In this document: piece by piece, positions 6,601 to 34,000 of the stretch
Layout of the letters: each line of letters starts with the position of its first letter
How positions within the stretch are numbered: position 1 is the first letter of the stretch
From: Octopus vulgaris
Lineage: Eukaryota
DNA length: 64,000 bases
Assembly (NCBI GenBank): GCA_951406725.2
Contig: OX597838.1
Coordinates: forward strand, 18,972,001-19,036,000
Direction of reading: 5' to 3'
Notes under the pieces: generated by a model
The model's database searches: none
Seen by the model: the letters and a program-made list of their open reading frames with translations, nothing else
Told to the model about the DNA's origin: nothing
Position numbers and translations under genes: made by a program

Positions 6601-8191
6601 CAAATTTCAAACCTGGGTTCTCATTCCTAAGATATTTTTCAATGTTATTATTATTATTATTATTATTATTCAAGTCACTGCCTGGAATCGAACTCGGAAT
6701 CTTGGGACTAGCAGCCCACGCTCTTAACCACTACGCCATATGCCCATGGGCATAGTGGTTAAGAGTGTGGGCTACTAACCCCAAGATTCTGAGCTCGATT
6801 CCAGGCAGTAACTTGAACAATAATAATAATAATATCAAAAAAATACATTAAGAATGAGAACCCAGGTTCGAAATTTCCCCAAGACACCACCTGATGAAGG
6901 CTGGAGGGTATATCAGCCGAAATGTTAACAACAAACAAGATGAGGACAAATATCCGTCAAATGTAAATAATGTACATAATTCCTCGTCTCTTAAATATAG
7001 AACTGAAAAAGCCTTTGGTACACAACCTAAGTTCTTGGCATAATGTTTCTATGTACTGAAAGTTTGTCTTATCAATTAAATAATGAAAGTTTGTCTTATT
7101 AATGAAATAATGAAATTTTGGCTAAATTTTGAATTTTAACCCTTTCGCATTTATTCCGGCCATATCCAGCCCCTCACACCTACCCTACAATGTCATTCTA
7201 AAAATATAAACACATTATTGAAACACACCAGCATCGGTTGTCAAGCGATGTTGGGGGGACAAACACAGACACACAAACACACACATATATATACATATAT
7301 ACGACAGGCTTCTTTCAGTTTCCGTCTACCAAATCCACTCACAAGGCATTGGTCGGCCCGGGGCTATAGCAGAAGACACTTGCCCAAGATGCCACGCAGT
7401 GGGACTGAACCCGCAACCATGTGGTTGGTTAGCAAGCTACTTACCACACAGCCACTCCTGCGCCAAAATAAATGACACTCCTATGACAAAAAAAATCTTA
7501 CCTTGAATGAATTCAGATCAGAGTTGATATATAATTTCAGCCTGGCAGTTACATTGGAGCCATTTTTTAAATTCAAAGAAATTTCCCTGGAAAAATAAAG
7601 AAATATGGAACATCACCTTCTGGATAAGAATCTTAGAATTAACTCTTTAAAAACACAAATAGGACCAAAATACATTATCAATGAGCTTATACATGGTCAC
7701 CAGTTCTGCTAAGGATAGAAGACAATTTTCACTCAAATCACACCATATTATCTTAACTCTTTAGTATTCGGATTACTGTCAAATGTAATATTTATTCATT
7801 CAAATTAATATAAGTTACGGGGATGTAAACACACCAACATTGGTTGTCAAGCGATGTTGGGGGGACAAACACAGACACACAAACACACACACACATATAT
7901 ATCATCATCATTTAACGTCCATTTATCGTGCTAGCACGGGTTGGGCGGTTTGACCGGGGTCTGGGAAGCCAGAAGGCTGAACCAGGCACACACATATACA
8001 TGACAGCTTCTTTTCAGTTTCTGTCTACCAAATCCACTCACAAGGCTTTGGTTGGCCCGAGGCTATAGTAGAAGACACTTGCCCAAGGTGCCACACAGTG
8101 GGACTGAACCCGGAACCATGTGGTTCGTAAGCAAGCTACTTAGGTTACACTATCCAGCTTGCTAACAACTCTGCCAGCTTGCCACCTAATA

Positions 8192-13998: not shown

Positions 13999-16900
13999 GT
14001 ATGCATACGACAGGCTTCTTTCAGTTTCCGTTTACCAAATCCACTCACAAGGCTTTGGCCGGCCCGAGGCTATAGTAGAAGATACAAGGTGCCACGCAGT
14101 GGGACTGAACCCGGAACCATGTGGTTGGTAAGCAAGCTACTTACCACACAGCCACTCCTGCACCCACTCACCTACCTACATACATACATACATCATGCCT
14201 GGCATGCTTAGGATTCTGACAGCTCACCACCTTAATAATAATAGTTTAAAATTTTGGTACAAGGCCAGCAATATCAAGGAGAGGGATAAGTCAATTACAT
14301 CAACCCCAGAGCTCAATTCTATATCCACCCCAAAAAATGAAAGGCAAAGTCAAGCCTGGTGGCACAAAAACAGACAAAATACCACCAAACACTTTGTCCA
14401 GTGTGCTAACAATTCTGCCAGCTAGCCACCTTAAAAATAATAATAATAATAATAATAATCCTACTAAAAGCAAGAGGCCTGAAATTTTGCGGGAAGGGGC
14501 CCATTGATTACATTGACCCTAGTGCTCAACTGGTCCTTATTTTATTATCAATTCTGAAAGGATGAAAAGCAGAGTCAACCTTGGTAACATTTGAACTTGG
14601 AACATAAATACAGACAAAATGTCACTAAGCAATAATAATAATAGTAATAATAATAATAATTTCTATTGTAGGCACAAGGCCTGAAATTTGGGGGAGGGGA
14701 CTAGTCGATTATATCAACCCCAGTGTTTAACTGGTACTTATTTTATTGACCCCAAAAGGATGAAAGGTAAAGTCGACCTCAGTGGAATTTGAACTCAGAA
14801 TATAACAATGGGCGAAATACCATTAAGCATTTCGTTAAGCACACTAATGATTCTGCTGGCTCGCCACCTTGACCCTTACGTTACCAACCCGGCTTAAACC
14901 GGCTCTGGCACTCAGTACAAATGTCTTGTTTTTGTAAGTTTGGAATTAAAATCTTCCACCAAACCTTCGTCACAATTTATGTTCCTAACACTAATTAAGT
15001 TATTGTACTAAATTCTTTGTTATATTTAAAGTAATTCAAAGAAACACAGAGCATCTCAAAATAAATACAGTAACAAAAGGGTTAATAATAATGACGATGA
15101 TGATATCGCTTACCTCATATTCTTTGACTTCTGACGGACCTAGTGCAAGTTTAGATTTCAATAGAAACGGGCAGTAATCAGTGGTGCTCATCTCTAGTCC
15201 ATTCACTAAGATATGAATCAATTCAACGTTACACTCCACCCAGTGGTTACTCAGGTTTCGGATAGTTATTGAACTCTTCTCAGCTATACCGATACAGCAG
15301 TCCGAGAATTTGGCCAGTGAGGACACGTCCAGAACGGATTTGCATGCTGCTAGATTGGGGTCTGCCAAAACAGAACTGCAGTTTCCGGCATGGCCAAGCT
15401 GATCTTTAGGAAGTGGTTCGCTAGCAGTCAGGATGGACATGAATGGATTCAACTGAGTCTGTTCGAGGGGTTCCTCAATGATCGTTTTCCAAAGTTTTGA
15501 TTCGTCCGTGCCTTCACCAATGAAGTTCTGCTTCGTCTTGTTAGCATGCTGCACTGAACAGCCCTCATTAGGTGGCCCTTCCAGCTTCCTACTTGGGTGC
15601 ATAGTATTATCACTGAATTTCTTATTTTCACAATATGGTCCGACACCAGCCATAGAGATTTTGGTGGCTTCTGGTTTAATTTTAGTGGAAGAGGTAAGGT
15701 TTGTTTCAGACTTGAGTGGTTCACCCTTGAAACTTAAATGACGCTGCAAGTTATCTTCACCAGTACCAATTCCAGATCTCATCGACAGTCTAGATTGAGG
15801 AACGTAAACATTCTCATTAGTAGCCAAAGCTTTCGCCCTCAAGGAGTCAAGAGAGTGTACAAGATGTGGTCGAACAAACTCATCTTGGTGTTGTAGGTCA
15901 CTGCTGACCTGTGGGCGATGGGAGTCAGATAACGGAGAAGACGCATATTCGAGGTTTTTTGATGATACAGCAGGTGCGGAATGTACTGTTCTCTGAAGTT
16001 TACTGGCAGCACTGGTAGTAGAAACAGAGGTCGCTAACAGAGCCGGTCTTTCTCGAGAAGGTACACCACCCAACACGTTGAGATTAAATACTCCTGAGGA
16101 GGGAATAGTTTGTATAGAGTGGGTAGAAACTGCACTGGGAGAAGATCTACTCTGTATGAAGCTAGGAGCAGGTACCCGGGAAGGCACAGTTTGCATGGAG
16201 TGAGTAATAGATGTACCTGGAGAAAATACACTTCTGGCGATATTTACAGGTGTCTCGGAAGAGAGTTTAGTTTTAGTTCTCAGATCATAAGTAGCTGTGG
16301 GTGCTGTCAGTGTCAAAGAAGAAGTTGAACTTGACATTGATGATGCAGTATGTAATATAGAAGTTGGCGCCGACACAGAAGGAACTTTTAGAGGGTCTAT
16401 AGAACGTGGTGCCAATGACAACGGAATTTTCTGAGTGTCTATAGAACTTGGTGCTGACGAAAATAGAACTTTCCGAGGGTATGTAGATGTCGGCGCTGAC
16501 AAAGAGGTGACTTTCTGAGCATCTCTAAGACTTGGTGTCAACGATAACGGAGCTTTCTGCGTGCGTCCAGAAATTGGTGCCGATGATAACGAACCGTTCT
16601 GTGTATGTAAAGAACTCGGTTCCAGTAACGATGGGTCCCTCAATGTGTCTGCACTTGATAAAGATACAGAAAGTTCTGTAAACGGAGCCTCGTCGCTGAA
16701 ACTATGCAAAGCTTTTTGAGAGGGGTTCAAACCCTGTGTGGCGTTGATGTGAAGCTGTTGTGTGGGGTTGTGTAACTCCAGACCACTAGTAACTCTTGGA
16801 GAAGTGTCACTCTGTGATGTCACTGTTTTGCAGTATTTGGCATCAATCTGATGGAAGGATTCCTTTTTCTGAACACTTCCTCTTGACCTGCACCTGTGGT

Positions 16901-19900
16901 TAACTTCGGATTCAAATCTAGATGCTATTTCTTTACAGGGCAAGGACAAGCTCACTCCATCGAGCATATCTGAGATTAAACTGTTACTAACCAAAGACTG
17001 TGAAACCAAGGTGAGATCTGAAAAATACCAAAGAGAAGAAAAACGATACAAACATATAAACACAAACATACACTCAGTCTAAAGATTCTATCAATGAAGC
17101 TTTGCTTCTTTGTCAAAAACAAAGCCCCTTAAAAAGAAAAAAAGCTCAAATAATGATATTTATAGGAAAGAGACAAGAGATGGTGTTACACATTCATATC
17201 TATGTGTATACGTAGGTATACGTGTGTAGAATACATCCCCACTTTTGGCACTATTTTGTTAGCCTACACATTTCCCCCCAGTGGTTGGGTTTTCCACATG
17301 CTTTGCAGTGTGTACCGAATGCAGGACATTTCTTCCGGTTATTGAACTCATGCTCCGTACCACAGTACTGGCATGTTCTTTGTTTGCGGGTATGTTTCGT
17401 CCTGTGCCTAGATACAATATCTACACTGCTGCCTAGTGCGCTTGTTTGTAAAGTAAGTGAGGCCATTTGTTTGGTAGTGGCTTCGAATGCTCGTGCAGTG
17501 TCTACTGCTTCCGTTAACTGGAGAGCGTCCTTACCTATGAGGGATTTCTGGACTTCTTTATGAGCACACCCCCATATGAGTTGATATTCTACACACGTAT
17601 ACCTACGTATACACATAGATATGAATGTGTAACAGATGGTATTTTATCATTCAAACAGGACTGGCTGGTTTTTATAATCTCCCTATCCAACCCACCACTG
17701 AATACAGCTAGAACAGAGCTTATGTAGAACTAAACAACAATAGCTACCATGGGGTAAGCTGGAAAGCTGTTACAGACTGAACCAACAAGGTAGAGTGATT
17801 CCTTGTTTACTGTGGTAGATTGGTTCCAAGACCGGCTGCGATAACTGAATTTCCGCGAAGTAGGGACACCATACTTACAGTATTTATTTAACGTGTGGCA
17901 CGTAAAAAGCACCATCCGATCGTGGCCGTTTGCCAGCCTCGTCTGGCACCCATGCCGGTGGCACATAAAAAGCACCCACTACACTCACGGAGTGGTTGGC
18001 GTTAGGAAGGACATCCAGCCGTAGAAACATTGCCAGATCTGACTGGCCTGGTGCAGCCTTCTGGCTTCCCAGACACCAGTTGAACCGTCCAACCCATGCT
18101 AGCATGGAAAGCGGACGCTAAACGATGATGATGACGATGTGTATTTGGACTTTTAAAACCCTCCCTGTACTGTTACTGTTAACAACCCACCCATTACAGT
18201 AGTCTATTAATAACAAGGACAACTGTTAAGCAATAACACTTTAGATTAAAAAAAAAAATAAAGATTGCTATTGTACTCAACACGAAAGAAGTTGAAGTGA
18301 AATTTGAATGATGATGGTGTAGTCTTCTGTGATTCATATCTAAAATGGCAGGCTACGGCAGCAAAAGTTCTCCCTTCCTTCAACACATCTAGAAGTTTCC
18401 CCCTTCTTGGCGATTGTCATCATTCTTCGTTTGCGTTTAGGCTCAGTACCAGCACGCTTGGGAGCCATTGCAGGGGATGAAAACGCAAAGAAACAAAAAA
18501 AAAAATCACACATAGCACTGCGTAAAGTAGTACAGTAAACCACTCGGCGAGAAAGCTTGAAGCGAAATGGCCGCGAGAGAGAGAGAGATAGACAAGGGAA
18601 GATGGTGCGGATCTGAGCATCGGTTAAAGCACCAATCACAGGCCTGATTACAAAATATAAAGCTGTGATACGTCGTCTCTCTCCATTGCACCAATCACAG
18701 CCTGTCTTTAAGTTCAAATACCCTTGTATATGCTTTTTTGCTATTTTACGCTTGTTTTGTTGTTCCTAGACTAGGAAATAATATTTATTAATATTTTAAT
18801 GGATTTAATGAAAAATTTTAGGTGTTCATATACTTATATTTTAAAGATCCGCGAAGTCATGAATCTGCGATAGTTGAACCGAGAAATAGCGAGGGATCAC
18901 TGTATGTGAAATTTAACCCTTTAGTAATTTAAACCAAACAGATCCAGCCCAAATATCTGACATGTTTTATGTCCAAAGTGGCCAGTTTTGGCCTCTCACA
19001 CTTCACCTACAATGCCATTCCGAAAATAAACAATTACATCATTTAACCCTTTAGCGTTTAAACCGGCCAAAAGTATTCTGCCTGTCTTATGTTCAAACTG
19101 GCCAGATCTGGTCTCTCACACCAACCCTACAATATCGTTTTAAAAATTAACAGCTACCTCATCAAAATCTCATAGCTACAAGATAATGCATGATTAGTTC
19201 AAATCAATAAGGATAAAAAAGGATTAATTTTGGCAGAATAATGCGAACACTAAAGGGTTAAATCTCAAAGCTATAAGACAATATAGGATTAATTCAAAGC
19301 AATGTAAATAAACAAGAATTGCATTTGACAGAATAATCTGAACGCTAAAAGGGTTTATCGAGGTTGTATAGTAAGTTTTGAAGCCATAATTGCATAAAGA
19401 ATTTATTCATGCAATAAGAATTTTATCCACAAACTCACTGTTGTCTTGACAACCATCACTCTGCAATGTGTCGCTATTATTATTATTATTACCCTCCTGT
19501 TTCTCATCCGGTATTTGCAACTGTTCACAAAACGATACTCTAGGATTCTGCTCGGGATTTGCTGCCTCCAGATTGTTATTCTTCTTTACTGACATGTGCA
19601 TAGGGTGTTGGATATCTTGCAGCTGCACAGATGATGTTCTGGTTCCCACATCTGCCAAATTCTCCAAGGCAGGTGAAGTAGCGGTTGACAAGGATTGGTT
19701 GTACAGAAACTGTAAGAGAGAAACACAGGGAACCGTCAAATATATTGGGTTGTCCGGAAAGTCCTTGCCGATTTTTAAAGGAAAGAAAAAGGTCAATAAA
19801 TACTTGCCATTACATTTTTAATCAACCAAATATGAACCATTTTGTTGCACAATGCGTCTCCATCTTTCCTTTACCTTGAAAATACCCCCTTCCCAGAATT

Positions 19901-22900
19901 TAGATGGTTTCATGGCAAAGAATTCATCAAGGTATCTTTTTACGTCATCCAAGGAATTGAAATTTTTACCATTAAGACTATTCTGCAGAGACCTGAATAA
20001 GTGGAAATCTGAAGGAGCAATATCTGGTGAATATGGAAGGTGGAGTAACACATCCCAGCCGAGCTGCAGCAATTTTTGTCTGGTTCCCAAAGCATTAAGT
20101 GCTGAAAATGAACTGTCTTATCTTCCATTTTAAAGGGTTACAGAATTAATACAGGTTATAGGAACATAAACCTTCTTCCACGAAAAGATAGCTTAACTCT
20201 TTAGTGTTTAAACCGGCTATATCCGGCCCAAATATTCTACTCATTTTATGCTCAAACTGGCCAGAACCAGTATCTCAACCTACCCTGCAATGTCCTTCTA
20301 AAAATAAACAATTACATCTTTCAAATCTTGAAGCTACAAGATAATACCAAGTTAATTTTTTTTAAATGTAAATGAATAAGGATTACTTCTGACATATTAA
20401 TTTGAACACTAAAGGGTTAAACTGTGCTCTAAATGGAGGTTTAGTCAAATCCTATTTTATGGACTCAACCATGTTCTAAAATAAGTTGAGAGGAAAGCTA
20501 CTATAAATCGGCACGAACTTTCCAGACAACCCAATATAATTGGTTTCAAATTTTGACACAAGGCCAGCAATTTCAGGGGAGCAGGTAAGACAATTACATT
20601 GACCCCAGTGCTCAAATGGTACCTATTTTATTGACCCTGAAAGGATGAAAGGCAAAGTCGAGCTCCACAGAATTTGAACTCAAAACATGAAGACGGACAA
20701 AATGCTGCTAAGCATTTTACCCGGCACGCTAACAGTTAAATAAGCCAGCTAATCAAACATTAAATCGATATATTTCTTAAGAAAATCGAATAAGTTCTTG
20801 AGAAACCTACAGAATTTGGCAGAGTTTCAGAGCCTATTCTCATATAGGTGCCAACTGACATCCGGTCTTTTTCTCCTTGGTTAACAAAGCTGAGATGACT
20901 ACAGTAACTCCAGTCGGTCAAATCAGTAGCCAGGGGTACTTCTAGGCATTTATCCTGGAAACAGATGAACAGAAATTTAAGGATTTTAGAAAGAAGCAGA
21001 CAGACAGAAAGTGCGGAGGGGGGAGCAGTTTATGTCAGTCAGGAATGCACAAAAGCAATGATATTAGAAAGCAAGACACATGGGATCTTTTCGGTTTGAA
21101 CGGCAATTTTTAACATAATTTCTAGGTAACTAAAAAATTTTAAACTTCGTATACTGGTAGAATGTGTTTATAAAACATCTTTTTCTCTTGGCTTTGAGAA
21201 AATTCTATAGTTTGTAAGATATTTGTTGTTGTTTTTTCTTCAATTTCTGCAATTTCAACCAATCAATGACGTTTATTGAGTAAAAAAAACATTCTGTGCC
21301 GTATGAATATGTCCCTCGTTTAAGAAACAGATTGGGTTTATTTACATTTGTGAAGAAAAAAAAGATACCCTTTCCCCCACCCCTAACCAACCCTAAAATA
21401 GATTGAAATGCAATAGATCGATACTAGGGTCATAATTATGGGTGACAATTTCATATGACACCGCTAGAAAAAACTGCCGTTCAAACTGAAAAGATCCGAC
21501 TCATGGAAATTCCTTGTTTTATAAATGTTCTTATTTCTATTTTGATGCATAAATTTATACATCTGTGTAACATTGTTTCATTCTGCTAAAAGATTTCAGA
21601 GCGAGAAAGGAAAACGGTGAATTTATGCAAAATTCGTTAAAAGATTTTCTTACGTAATTGGAGCAATCATTTCTTCCATTGAATTCTGCTTCATCAGCAT
21701 CTAATTTAGAAGTGCCGGAATCTAGAGAAAAGTAATTAAAATTAAAAGGAAAAAAATTCATCACCATTGTCAGAAATTTAGGGGAAAGGGACAATCGATA
21801 TAAATCAATACAATTACAGGCCCAGGAATTTTTCGAAGGGAGGGCACAAGGTCACAAAGGAGTACAATATATACACACACATACATATATATACACTCTC
21901 AGAGTGGTCATACACTCTTGGAGTGGTCATACACTCTCGGAGTGGTTTGATACACTCTTGGAGTGGTTGGCATTAGGAAGGGCATCCAGCTGTAGAAACT
22001 CTGCCAGATCAGACTGGAGCCTGGTGCAGCCATCTGGCTCACCAGTCTCCAGTCAAACCGTCCAACCCATGCCAGCATGGAAAGCGGACGTTAAACGATG
22101 ATGATGATGATATATAACAGGCTTCTTTCAGTTTCTGCCTACCAAATCCACTTGCAAGGCTTTGGTTGGCCTGAGGCTATAGTAGAAGACACTTGCCCAA
22201 GGTGTCACGCAGTGGGACTGAAACTGGAACCATGTGGTCCGTAAGCAAGCTACAATCATGTGACTATGTAGCACATGATATAATATACACCCTCATATAT
22301 ACATACATATACAGCGATAGGCATCTTATACCATCTGAATATGAAGAATATGTTGCAAGTGGGATACCAAGCATCTTAGTCGCACAAGACTATCACATAG
22401 ACATACACATGCAGACAAAAGCACCGAGAGAGCGAAACAAAAATAAAAGCCTTACCAAAGGCAAAATCCTCGGATGCAGACCCAAATCCTGAACCTTTCA
22501 TGTTTCCCACATAGTTATCAAAATCTGCACGGTAAGCAAGGTCAGTTTCAAAAGGTTCGTCCAAGAAGGTTTCGACATTCAAAGGCTCCGGGTTCTCAGC
22601 AGCTGTAAATAATAAAAAAAGAAAAAGGGCTGTCAGTGAATTGATTTAATGTTTTAACTAGTTACAGCAGTGATTTCCAAAGTGGGTGGTTTTACCCCCT
22701 GCGGGCAGTGGAAAGTTCCAAGGGGGTGTTGAGGAAAAGTGGAGTGATAATGGGGTGGCGATTCATGTAAAAACAACAAAATAATGGGTTCATTAAATAC
22801 TTAAAATTCTTAAAAATGTTTTAGCCCGAAGGCCGCGGCCATGCTGGGGCACCACCGCTGTGGGGGCTCGTCCGGGATAAATTAGGTTGAGTTTTATTTG

Positions 22901-25900: not shown

Positions 25901-28900
25901 ACATTAGGTTACTCTGTCAAATGTAATGCTTCTTCCATCAATGCTGGTGAATTACAGGGCCAACCAAAACAGGAGGTCAGTGTTTTATATTGGCTGGAAG
26001 CACTGTCAGTTACGACGACGAGGGTCCCGGTTGATCCGATCAACGGAACATCCTGCTCGTAAAATTAACGTGTAAGTGGCTGAGCACTCCACAGACACAT
26101 GTACCCTTAACGTAGTTCTTGGGGATATTCAGCGTGACACAGAGAGTGACAAGGCTGGCCCCTTTGAAATACAGGTACAACAGAAACAGGAAGTAAGAGT
26201 GAGAGAAAGGTGTGGTGAAAGAGTACAGCAGGGATCACCACCATCCCTGCCGGAGCCTCGTGGAGCCTTAGGTGTTTTCGCTCAATAAACACACACAATG
26301 CCCGGTCTGGGAATCGAAACCGCGATCGTACAACCGCAAGTCTGCTGCCCTAACCAATCATGGTGACAAGGGCACCAAGTGATCCAATAAATGGATCCAT
26401 GAGCCTGCTCATGGAATTAACATGCAAATAGCTGAGCACTCCACAGACATGTAGTTTTCTGGGAAATTTGGCATGACACAGGGTGTGACAAAGCTGGATC
26501 TTTGAAGTACAGGTACAGCTCATTCTGGCCAGCTGAGTGGACTTGAGCAACATTAAATAAAGTGTCACACTCAAGGACACAGTGTGCCACCAGGAACTGG
26601 ACTCACAACCTTATAACAGTTAGCCACACACCATCACAGTGTTCCTCTTTTACTCTCATTTTTACTTGTTTCAGTCAGTTGACTGTGGCCATGCTGGAGC
26701 ACCACCTTTAGTCAAGCAAATCGACCCCAGGACTTAATCTTTGTAAGCCTAGTACTTATTCTATCGGTCTCTTTTGCCAAACTGCTAAGTCACAGGGACA
26801 TAAACTCACCAGCATCGGTTGTCAAGCAATGTTGAGGAGACAAACACAGACACATATATACGTGTGTATATATACATATATACGACAGGCTTCTTTCAGT
26901 TTCCGTCTACCAAATCCACTCACAAGGCTTCGGTTGGCCTGAGGCTATAGTAGAAGACACTTGCCCAAGGTGCCACACAGTGGGACTGAACCCGAAACCA
27001 TGTGGTTCATAAGCAAGCTACTTACCACACAGTGGAGGCGCAATGGCCCAGTGGTTAGGGCAGCGGACTCGCGGTCGTAGGATCACGGTTTCGATTCCCA
27101 GACCGGGCGTTGTGAGTGTTTATTGAGCGAAAACACCTAAAGCTCCATGAGACTCCGGCAGGGGATGGTGGTGATCCCTGCTGTACTCTTTCACCGCAAC
27201 TTTCTCTCACTCTTACTTCCTGTTTCTGTTGTACCTGTATTTCAAGGGGCCGGCCTTGTCACTCTCTGTGTCACGCTGAATATCTCCGAGAACTACGTTA
27301 AGGGTACATGTGTCTGTGGAATGCTCAGCCACTTACACGTTAATTTCACGAGCAGGCTGTTCCGTTGATCGGATCAACCGGAACCCTCGTCGTCGTAACC
27401 GACAGAGTGCTTCCCTCCACTTACCACACAGCCACTCCTTTGATTTAAAAAGTCTTGAAGATAGAGTCCCAGTATGATCATAGTTTGATCCAATGGCCGA
27501 AACCTGTAAAACAACAAATAAATAAAATATATTTGACCAATGGCCAACCAACCTGAGTTTGTCCAGCACCACCAATTGGTACATTATCTGTCATCTGAGA
27601 GAGAACCTTCTCAAGACAAAAGGAATCAGCGAAAGCAGATGGCCGGCCAATTGTACTGCAATATGACATTTCCTGCAAACAAAGGAAACAAAAGATAACC
27701 ATTTTGGCTATGGGGTTAGGTGGTAGTACGACTTCTAATTGAGGGTCATGGTTGTTAGTTTATAATAATAATAATAATAATAATGAAATTATTGTATACA
27801 GTGCTCAGGTGCACCACAACTTGTCAAAAGTGCGTATAAAGCATATGCAGTAATGTACAAATGTCTGGGAAGCGCACAGTGTATGAGTCAGATACATGCT
27901 TGTGTGTGTATAGAGGGGAGAAAAATCAGATGTAGTGTTGGCGAATCTCAGAAAGCATGGAAGTTTTGAAGGATGCAGTGCTCCGACAACTAACAACTGA
28001 TGCCGGCAGTTTGTTCCATGCTTCAGCAACTCTTAGCATGAAAAAATGTTTCCAAAAGTCATGGGAACTGTGCTGTTTTCTGATTTTGTAAACATGTCCA
28101 CGGGTGTTAGACGGGTGGATCTTACTGCAGGCGTTATCAATCGCAGGTCGTCATTTATCAAGAAGATACGTAATCAAAAACCATTCCAACGCAGACCGTT
28201 CCATTTTCAATGTTGTCTAATGTTCCCTCTCTGTCTTCTAAAAACAAAGCAGGCATACGAGTGGCTGTGTGGTAAGTAGCCTGCTTACCAACCACATGGT
28301 TCCAGGTTCAGTTCCACTGCATGGTACCTTGGGCAAGTATCTTCTACTATAGCATCGGGCCGACCAAAGCCTTGTAAGTGGATTTAGTAGACGGAAACTG
28401 AAAGAAGCCCGTTGTATATATGTGTGTATGTATGTGTGTGTGTGTGTGTCCAACATCGCCTGACAACCGATACTGGTGTATTTACGTCCCCGTAACTTAG
28501 CGGTTCGGCAAAAGAGACCGATAGAATAAGTACTAGGCTTACAAACAGTAAGTCCTGGAGTCGATTTGCTCGACTAAAGGCAGTGCTCCAGCATGGCCTC
28601 AGTCAAATGACTGAAACAAGTAGAAGAGTAAAAAGAGAGACCCAATCGATTATCTCCCTTCTCCTCTAGCTGGGAATCCATGAGAACACAAGGGAGATAA
28701 CTTTGCTAGAAACAGTTTATTAAGCTGAACAGAAAACGCTTTTAAACAAAGCGAGACGACTGATCAGAATCACAACCTGCTAGAAATAACAGCGATATCT
28801 TCCACAATCCATACTGACACGCACAGCACCCGAGCAAGTGCATTCTATCATAATCTAGGATTTTACAATTGCTTGTCAGTTAGACTGACGGGACGCTGGT

Positions 28901-31050: not shown

Positions 31051-34000
31051 CACACACACACACAAACAAAACTTACTTGGTTTTCCAAGGTCAACACGTG
31101 GAAGCTTTGCACTTGCAGAACCCTTTAAAGACACCATAGATATCTCCCTGAGATTGTCTTCTATCAGATTTAGGATCGGTTGAGCTTCTTCAGGGTCTTC
31201 AAGTTCAAACTCACTGTCCAGCATCCGCAGATCCTCTTCCTTCAACTCAACAGGGGGCTGCTTGGAGTTGTCGCCCATACTTAACATGTGCATCTGAAGG
31301 AACGCCTGCGTCATATCCAAACGACCATTACCTGCGACGGACAGCTTCCTCTGGGCAGTGTCGACATTTCCCAAGGCATGGCGTCGGACTAACTCGATGT
31401 CAGACAATCTGGAAGACCGAGAGAGATTGGCCGTTTCTTTGGCAGAATCGACATTGGTTTGATTGAGAGGATTCAACAGAGATTCCATTCCACCTGCAGT
31501 AAAAAAAAATCAAAGATTATGAAAGTTTGTGTGTATGTGTTGGGGTTGAGGTGGAATTTTATCATTTAGTGTCTGTTTTTCATGCTGGCAGGGTTTGACT
31601 GGAGATGGTAAGCCGGAGAACTGCACCAGGCTCCAGTCTGTTTTGGCTAGGTTTCTACCTGTGGATACCCTTCCTAATGCCTACCACTCCACAGTGTACT
31701 GGGTGCCTGTTATGTGACAGGTACGGTTTCCTATTATGTGTCACAGCTGCCTGTTATGCGTCATGGTCACAAGAACGGGTGCCTGTCATGTGACGCAGGG
31801 AACGGGTGCCTGTCATGTGTCGCTGCCTGTCATGTGTCGCGGGGAACGTCATGTGTCGCGGGGAACGGGTGCCTGTCATGTGTCGCGGGGAACGGGTGCC
31901 TGTCATGTGTCGCGGGGAACGGGTGCCTGTCATGTGTCACAGGGAACGGGTGCCTGTCATGTGTCACAGGGAACGGGTGCCTGTCATGTGTCATGGGGAA
32001 CGGGTGCCTCTCATGTGTCGCGGGGAACGGGTGCCTGTCATGTGTCACGGGGAACGGGTGCCTGTCATGTGTCACGGGGAACGGGTGCCTGCCATGTGTC
32101 ACGGGGAACGGGTGCCTGTCATGTGTCACAGGGAACGGGTGCCTGTCATGTGTCATGGGGAACGGGTGCCTCTCATGTGTCGCGGGGAACGGGTGCTTCT
32201 CATGTGTCGCAGGCACGGGTGCCTGTTATGTATCATGGGCATGTACCTTAGGAATGAGAACCCAGGTTCGAAATTTCCCCAAGACACCTGATGAAGGCTG
32301 GAGGGTACATCAGCTGAAACGTTGTGCTAACAACAAACAAGATGAGGACAAATATCCATTGAATGTAAATAATGTACATAATTCCTCATCTCTTAAATAT
32401 AGAACTGCATAAGTTACTATGCTTAACAAGGTTAATTCCATTTTTGGTTAAACACAGAAGATTGTCCTCCTTTATTACAAGAAATCAGAAAATGTGAAGG
32501 AAACTTACTCTGAAGGAATTCATCTGGAATAAGACCAAGAGATGAAGCATTTGAGAGAATAGAATTCTCAGAATAAGCAGATATATTGTAAGGTTCCACT
32601 GCTGGAAAATTTGGTATAATGGTAGGAGATCTGTTTTAAAAAAAAATACAAAACGGGTTTAATTTTTAGAAAGATTCTTTGCCATCATAAACAATAAATA
32701 AAATATAAATAATCCATGCCACATAAAAAAAAACAAAAACACCCACTCCATTCTGTAAGTTGGTTAGCATTAGGGAGGGCATCCAGATGTGAAACCCATG
32801 CCAAAATAGACAGTAACACCTGGTGCAGCCCTCTAGTTTGTCAGCTCCTGTCAAACCGTCCAACCCATGCCAGCATAGAAAACAGATGTTAGATGATGAT
32901 GATGGATGATGAAAGGTGGTGGTGGTGATTGCAATCACGAACATCTTGTCTGTTAGGCACATGGGAATGCTATAAATCATTGTCTTAGAAAAGCACATCA
33001 ATATGGGTTCAGGCGTGAGCGTTTCTATATGGTGTAGGCGCTACTGCCCTTTATGCGACACCAGCACAGGTCTCTTGTAAGCTAATCTTCAGTGGTAGCA
33101 GCCTTATCGAAGAGGATTGACCTAGAGTTTTCACGACCTAGGTCAATCCTTTGAAAGAAGCCCATCGTATATATGTATATATATATAACATTATTGGTGA
33201 ATTGAAGAAATGGAGCTGAACGCAGATTGAACAGAAATCGTTTTATTTCATTCTACACGTGTTTCGAAAGGCACAAATTACCAAAATCCGATGGAATAAT
33301 GGGACCATATTGTGTCTTTCTCTTCAGGAAGAAAATAGGAAATCCGTTGGAAAAACAAAAACAGAACAGAGGCGGAGCAAAAACAAATCGAACTATGCTC
33401 CTAAGAGCCCATGGGCTCTTAGGAGCATAGTTCGATTTGTTTTTGCTCCGCCTCTGTTCTGTTTTTGTTTTTCCAACGGATTTCCTATTTTCTTCCTGAA
33501 GAGAAAGACACAATATGGTCCCATTATTCCATCGGATTTTGGTAATTTGTGCCTTTCGAAACACGTGTAGAATGAAATAAAACGATTTCTGTTCAATCTG
33601 CGTTCAGCTCCATTTCTTCAATTCACCAATAATGTTCTAATTTCAATTATCCGCACCAACGCACGGTTGCAACACCATATGGTTGTACCTCCAACCGTGC
33701 TGTTTTTACTGCTGTGATTTTTGCTACTAAGGTATCGGTTAAACATTTGATTAATCTACTACAAGATTATTCATCTTTCTATTTCACATTGTATATATAT
33801 ATATATATATATATACCCCTCTGCAAAGGAATTTTATTTAATTCTTTCGCAGGAAGGACTGGATCGACGGGTCGTGTTCTGTCCTTACCTTCAAAACACG
33901 CATAGAGTTGATCCTGGGACAGCTGATGAAGGGGAATATTCCTTGTATTATTTGTCTTGTACCCTGTTTTTTCGTTGTTTAAAAAAGTCCGTTTCCTAGT

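Follow-up and report, generated by a model that had tools for sequence, protein, structure and literature searches.

The window, a stretch of 64,000 nucleotides of Octopus vulgaris DNA, holds a 451-bp element (17184-17634) near a large exon that belongs to a CEP192-like host gene. The element begins with TGT and ends with ACA, its inverted ends are identical across exactly 50 bp, and GATGG is duplicated on its two sides (17179-17183 and 17635-17639), a five-of-five match with a chance probability of ~0.0007. The original prediction, made from this sequence, had described perfect 50-bp terminal inverted repeats (TIRs) of this form flanked by a GATGG target-site duplication (TSD), and the coordinates agree with it exactly. 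The main features of the locus are as follows.

15036-17017, minus strand: large exon of the CEP192-like host gene (Pfam Cep192_D1, E 3.8e-15)
17179-17183: left TSD copy, GATGG; 456 bp are missing at the empty site in organism C
17184-17262, plus strand: LTR bases 1-79 (U3 end), the first 50 bp forming the left TIR; 100% identity to the LTR starts of at least five other loci
17252-17262: putative strand-switch junction, 11 nt common to LTR bases 69-79 and the reverse complement of gag; single-copy in the genome
17253-17585, minus strand: 333-bp gag fragment, parent bases 769-1101; 91-97% identity to 39 other loci
17585-17634, minus strand: inverted LTR bases 1-50 (U3 end), forming the right TIR; deletion-type junction
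17635-17639: right TSD copy, GATGG, matching the left copy

The element thus reads as LTR bases 1-79, inverted gag bases 1101-769 and inverted LTR bases 50-1. Its interior had been described as a 351-bp gag segment with an open frame and a double zinc knuckle. The minus-strand frame is indeed open and contains two Cys/His knuckles (CX2CX3HX7C and CX2CX4HX4C), but only 333 bp (element bases 70-402) match gag and bases 51-79 are LTR sequence. The fragment covers the end of the capsid and the two knuckles, without the start codon context. A Pfam profile search with the fragment returned no gag family at E<=0.1, and its identity as gag is based on its location upstream of pol in full-length copies. 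Among the 40 of 459 genome candidates that were scored, bases 70-402 match 39 other loci, where the counterpart of bases 1-79 lies ~700 bp upstream of gag in the opposite orientation. The multiple 451-bp copies that had been named as support were not found in this assembly, in which the LTR/gag junction occurs once with up to three mismatches allowed. The junction between gag and the right TIR has a 1-nt overlap and is of deletion type. A predicted fold of the element (-172.7 kcal/mol, z -10.8) merely restates the TIR.

The TG..CA ends and the TSD point to insertion by a DDE integrase. The element carries U3 at both tips, in inverted orientation, and has no U5, PBS, PPT or complete LTR; lacking the last three, it would not retrotranspose again. 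It is a dead single-copy fossil. Judging from the DNA sequence, it probably lies inside an intron of the CEP192-like gene, ~165 bp upstream of a candidate splice acceptor of the large exon.

An empty-site allele, one of the checks proposed at the outset, is present in organism C, whose contigs (two runs, two studies) omit exactly 456 bp, or 451 plus 5, and this exactness shows that the TSD is real. In organisms A (two studies), D and E, contigs cross the left edge and extend 27-40 nt inside the element, and one organism B contig covers the right junction by 23 nt. Under a 31-nt bridging rule only the 40-nt contig piece passes, and it may be that the assembly itself was built from X1. In the 3% of raw-read run X21 that was read, nothing covers the site, a result that says nothing for or against the insertion. 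The contig pieces listed bridge the outer junctions only (23-40 nt) and none of the internal ones. Organisms B, D and E diverge by ~3% from the window flank, and the organism with the empty site is more distant. The insertion had been called recent, which is true in a loose sense: four organism labels (A, B, D and E) have junction contigs, and the site is empty in the more distant organism.

Other features of the window include a perfect 228-bp palindrome with no spacer (33184-33639), a minisatellite with a 27-bp unit (31767-32267) and very abundant SINE-like repeats (for example 7221-7463, 26660-27044 and 17790-18170). A minus-strand stretch at 19818-20117, which from its motif we take to resemble the C-terminus of a mariner transposase, gave no Pfam match.

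The parent Ty3/Gypsy family

The TIR equals the LTR end of the Gypsy family that donated the gag fragment, which was the comparison the original prediction had called for. Together with the empty site, this result supports its reading of the element as an LTR-retrotransposon derivative with two inverted copies of one LTR end, inserted by integrase. The parent is a ~4.8-kb Ty3/Gypsy element with direct LTRs of 207-251 bp (~230) around gag-pol and a PPT before the 3′ LTR, and its pol order is RT-RNaseH-integrase (Pfam, copies L067 and L069). Direct TG..CA LTRs, a PBS, a PPT and a TSD in the 4-6-bp range all place it in Ty3/Gypsy, and ordinary copies have a 5-bp TSD, as the window element does. 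The window element itself, with no direct LTR pair and no whole LTR, is neither a canonical copy nor a solo LTR nor a TRIM.

The LTR bears short terminal inverted repeats (5 bp, TGTTA/TAACA) and an internal hairpin at bases ~55-105. The PBS matches tRNA-Leu(AAG) genes of the host; all 18 nt match in just six of the 56 ordinary 5′ LTRs, and for most PBSs in the genome the match ends at 13. A dense cluster of tRNA-Leu genes (AAG and TAG) lies at C14:40.81-40.86 Mb (L317/L321) and is likely the source of the parent's primer. In the available text on mosquito Mag elements, these have similar sizes, Leu/Ser PBSs and mostly 5-bp TSDs (PMC3286476), and the parent, which may belong with them, resembles them in size, PBS and TSD. 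From Mag-like Ty3/Gypsy elements as described there, the window insertion differs by its inverted U3 at both ends and its lack of U5, PBS and PPT (PMC3286476).

Census and junctions of U3-U3 insertions

Exact genome searches listed 275 U3 ends of the family by flanking base, and ends were then paired by coordinate. We examined 247; the other 28 are all preceded by GA, as after a PPT. The examined ends sort into 81 solo LTRs, 58 5′ LTRs, 34 3′ LTRs, 52 others and 22 inverted ends, the last making up 12 U3-U3 insertions with the window element included. Their lengths (131, 142, 162, 186, 276, 296, 301, 336, 339, 366, 451 and 4,427 bp) are all different. All 12 have an exact TSD of 5 bp (not 6), each with its own sequence; all return exactly at LTR base 1, and none carries host flank copied in inverted form. 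The short arm measures 26-232 bp and stays within one LTR in every case. Relative to ~203 family insertions the rate is 5.9%, or about 1 in 17; the denominator includes segmental duplicates, and the exact searches miss ends that have diverged. At least three further strand-switch products, with one end damaged or missing, had first been sorted as solo or 5′ LTRs.

Several candidates were set aside. One of 11 convergent pairs (C8:22967650) proved to be a solo LTR and a neighbouring insertion that share no TSD. Regular-expression matches at C8:98891315 and C10:47867420 were not counted because they have no TSD, and two matches at C28:1535217 were apparent self-matches.

A tree of 145 LTRs took in the nine strand-switch LTRs that were long enough, leaving out the window element and the short siblings. 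These nine are scattered over the tree (9 changes against a shuffled mean of 8.9), and a single clade for them is rejected (p-AU 0.0002) on a tree whose bootstrap is not fully settled. U3-U3 forms are thus repeated accidents, independent across subfamilies, and not a spreading TIR lineage. Among 179 exact U5 ends, one insertion is likely U5-U5, where the matched search had given 10 U3-U3 pairs, a weak asymmetry (binomial p 0.03, Fisher p 0.057). The likely U5-U5 insertion (L311:800-1315, C8:22968799) is 516 bp long, with a TSD that matches at four of five positions.

Sequence shared between the two sides of a junction amounts to at least 5 nt at six of 11 scored junctions, the window junction having 11, compared with three of 146 random ones (p 0.001; data and null were scored alike). 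Five scored junctions share at most 3 nt, and two of these are tRNA-end junctions scored against parents with 13-nt PBSs. The insertion at C2:151289493 was left out of the scoring because of its 78 bp of filler, for which a search found no source. One LTR hairpin near base 100 is used by four junctions. Five switches occur where the 18-nt tRNA copy ends, two in the 12 U3-U3 insertions and three in products with one end damaged or missing; this is also the end of plus-strand strong-stop DNA. The sibling at C18:66751317 contains two nested switches, one of which continues past U3 base 1 into the PPT, and in two siblings the arms differ at 4-5 of ~70 bases.

The longest sibling (L065:501-4927, C18:16722898; TSD AATAC) is 4,427 bp long, with 232-bp TIRs identical at 229 of 232 positions. 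Gag, RT, RNase H and most of the integrase lie inside it, interrupted by stops and frameshifts, and its pol reaches to ~60 residues short of the integrase end. Among the 275 U3 ends it is the sole long TIR-bounded copy, and it still carries RT.

A different product, L307:1012-1490 (C2:205496511; TSD CTTAG), has a U5 end and then folds back over U5. There follows a 55-nt copy of the 3′ part of tRNA-Leu(AAG), up to base 27 and stopping before G26, and then inverted internal sequence that terminates at an internal CA. Relative to the commonest tRNA gene (13 of 21), A34 is read as G, A58 is mismatched and the variable arm has two mismatches. A34, A58 and G26 are the inosine, m1A and m2,2G sites of the tRNA. 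This pattern at modified positions shows that fold-back during reverse transcription occurs in this family, at a locus other than the window's, and L307 looks like the fossil of a mature modified tRNA that was reverse-transcribed and of the use of a cryptic end.

Other irregular copies were also observed. L137:1502-1784 (C7:104249954) has a tRNA-end fold-back; its second U3 end is short of the final 19 bases, yet the TSD follows it. L078 (C20:33500347) is scrambled, consisting of an LTR start, internal pieces in alternating orientation and a 3′ LTR. Four deleted copies of ~1.9 kb (L260-L263, C27), each with a piece of the 3′ UTR in inverted orientation, have flanks that are nearly identical and are likely segmental duplicates.

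Explanations for two U3 ends

Under either of the two leading explanations, the window element is very probably a U3-U3 integrase-type insertion of this Ty3/Gypsy family. We consider it probable that a strand switch in reverse transcription gave a DNA with two U3 ends, which was then inserted, probably by the family's own integrase. A PPT-primed plus strand would make U3 and anneal by short complementarity to another plus-sense template, at the 11 nt of the LTR 79/gag junction for the window element, and at the tRNA copy end or the base-100 hairpin for siblings. The annealed strand would be copied back to U3 base 1, and second-strand synthesis would yield a duplex carrying two U3 attachment sites, ready for integration. 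The junction of U3 base 50 with gag would be a deletion, made either during second-strand synthesis or after insertion.

A short arm of at most one LTR, seen in 12 of 12 insertions, is what a partner consisting of plus-strand strong-stop DNA would be expected to give; long-arm palindromes that were lost or left unassembled may mimic this limit. The direct marks of reverse transcription, namely the tRNA-end switches and L307, come from siblings and none from the window element. The microhomology at the junctions also fits host end-joining.

End-joining is central to the other leading explanation, which we regard as unlikely. Here the integrase would pair, at one target, the U3 ends of two separate cDNAs, such as a strong-stop duplex and a longer molecule, whose inner ends the host would trim and join by microhomology-mediated end joining. 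Integrases accept two like ends in vitro, and such a course would account for the exact U3 ends, the 5-bp TSD, the 1-11-nt microhomology, the deletion in the window element, the 78-bp filler at C2:151289493 and the two siblings with differing arms. However, it has no built-in limit of one arm to one LTR, which all 12 insertions obey. It also fits poorly with L307, a one-molecule fold-back over an attached tRNA primer, and with the nested switches at C18:66751317, one of which passes U3 base 1 and enters the PPT.

Quite improbably, an ordinary copy or solo LTR could have been inserted first, with a later replication-fork template switch via TGTTA/TAACA putting an inverted U3 in place of U5. The terminal inverted repeats of the LTR and its hairpin, the latter used in four junctions, would lend themselves to such a switch, and L311 supplies one likely U5-U5 case. 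Yet equal numbers of U3-U3 and U5-U5 forms would then be predicted, against 10:1 observed, and all 12 insertions return exactly at LTR base 1 and lack inverted flank sequence. The L307 pattern would also be left unexplained, as would the junctions at tRNA base 18, a position that most PBSs in the genome, ending at 13, do not reach.

Capture of a gag fragment by a MITE with TIRs of its own, whether of Ginger type (the first option in the original prediction) or another, is very improbable. TGT..ACA ends and 50-bp TIRs do fall inside the Ginger range, but the 5-bp TSD is neither of the 4-bp CCGG kind nor at RTATAY, as Ginger targets are given in the available account (PMC2836005). Moreover, the TIR is the tip of LTRs whose family possesses a PBS, a PPT and RT, and the LTR match extends to base 79, beyond the TIR. 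The element is single-copy, the 12 U3-U3 lengths all differ, and the nine strand-switch LTRs form no clade. An assembly or chimeric-read artefact is hardly credible: fold-back shapes can arise in long reads, and the contig pieces listed leave the internal junctions unbridged, but an artefact would not yield TSDs in 12 of 12 insertions and runs counter to the left-junction contigs from organisms A (two studies), D and E, the right-junction contig from B and the exact empty site in C.

Comparison with known systems

Strand switching would give retrotransposons inverted ends like those of DNA transposons in one step. What is new here is a rate for the whole family (~6%), together with rules for its junctions, an empty site and tree evidence for independent origins; a literature search, whose coverage left older retrovirology mostly outside, gave no account of integrase-made inverted-LTR insertions in the texts available. 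For annotation, U3-U3 pieces are mistaken for MITEs or overlooked by tools that require direct LTRs. Should they be transcribed within introns of host genes, the product would be hairpin RNA specific to the family.

Polymerases that double back, so that one end caps both, are familiar from copy-back defective genomes of RNA viruses and from the inversions of L1 twin priming. Copy-back genomes replicate further, whereas the U3-U3 copies here show no amplification. DIRS elements, as far as the available descriptions go, also have inverted terminal repeats on a retroelement; they use a tyrosine recombinase and their inverted LTRs are normal, whereas the present family has an rve integrase and direct LTRs, and the inversion is an error product.

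The attachment sites of U3 and U5 form imperfect inverted repeats that suffice for integration, according to the portion of the source available (PMC12789967). Complex LTR insertions in Triticeae arise by template switching, and they share with our proposal an abnormal template switch in reverse transcription followed by one integration; they fuse two elements that share an LTR, and strand reversal or two like ends are not described in the available text (PMC1950507).

The window element differs from a MITE family in that its junction is single-copy, where many near-identical copies of uniform length define a MITE. Ginger transposons, in the available account, have TGTNR termini, TIRs of ~40-270 bp and an RT-less transposase with a Gypsy-type integrase signature; their TSD is 4 bp (Ginger1 at CCGG/CCGT, Ginger2 at RTATAY), with 5 bp only in Dictyostelium TDD (PMC2836005). 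The window element shares the terminal motif (TGTTA) and the TIR length (50 bp) with them (PMC2836005). Unlike them (PMC2836005), U3-U3 insertions have a 5-bp TSD in 12 of 12 cases, and among the 275 U3 ends listed the window TIR is shared with LTRs around RT-RH-IN and with no RT-less partner. Also unlike Ginger, the window element has no transposase of its own and has not multiplied, and its TIR is identical to a retrotransposon LTR.

The steps from LTR retrotransposon to DNA transposon were called unclear by Bao et al., who in the text available suggested two LTRs opposed by chance (PMC2836005). The original prediction had seen in the window element something like an intermediate of this kind; as a likeness of form this fits the shape of the class, best the 4.4-kb sibling. 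A broader proposal, which we advance as doubtful, is that integrase-type LTR retrotransposons routinely yield TIR-bounded, TSD-flanked insertions, ~6% in this family and some of them retaining integrase-coding DNA, and that these gave Ginger1-like transposons and TGT..ACA MITEs a one-step origin in place of a chance meeting of LTRs. The 4.4-kb sibling resembles Ginger in its 232-bp TIRs around integrase-coding DNA and differs from it in its broken gag and RT. It shows, from one insertion, the layout proposed for the step from Gypsy to Ginger1, and one family has produced this opposed-LTR layout in single insertions at least 12 times independently.
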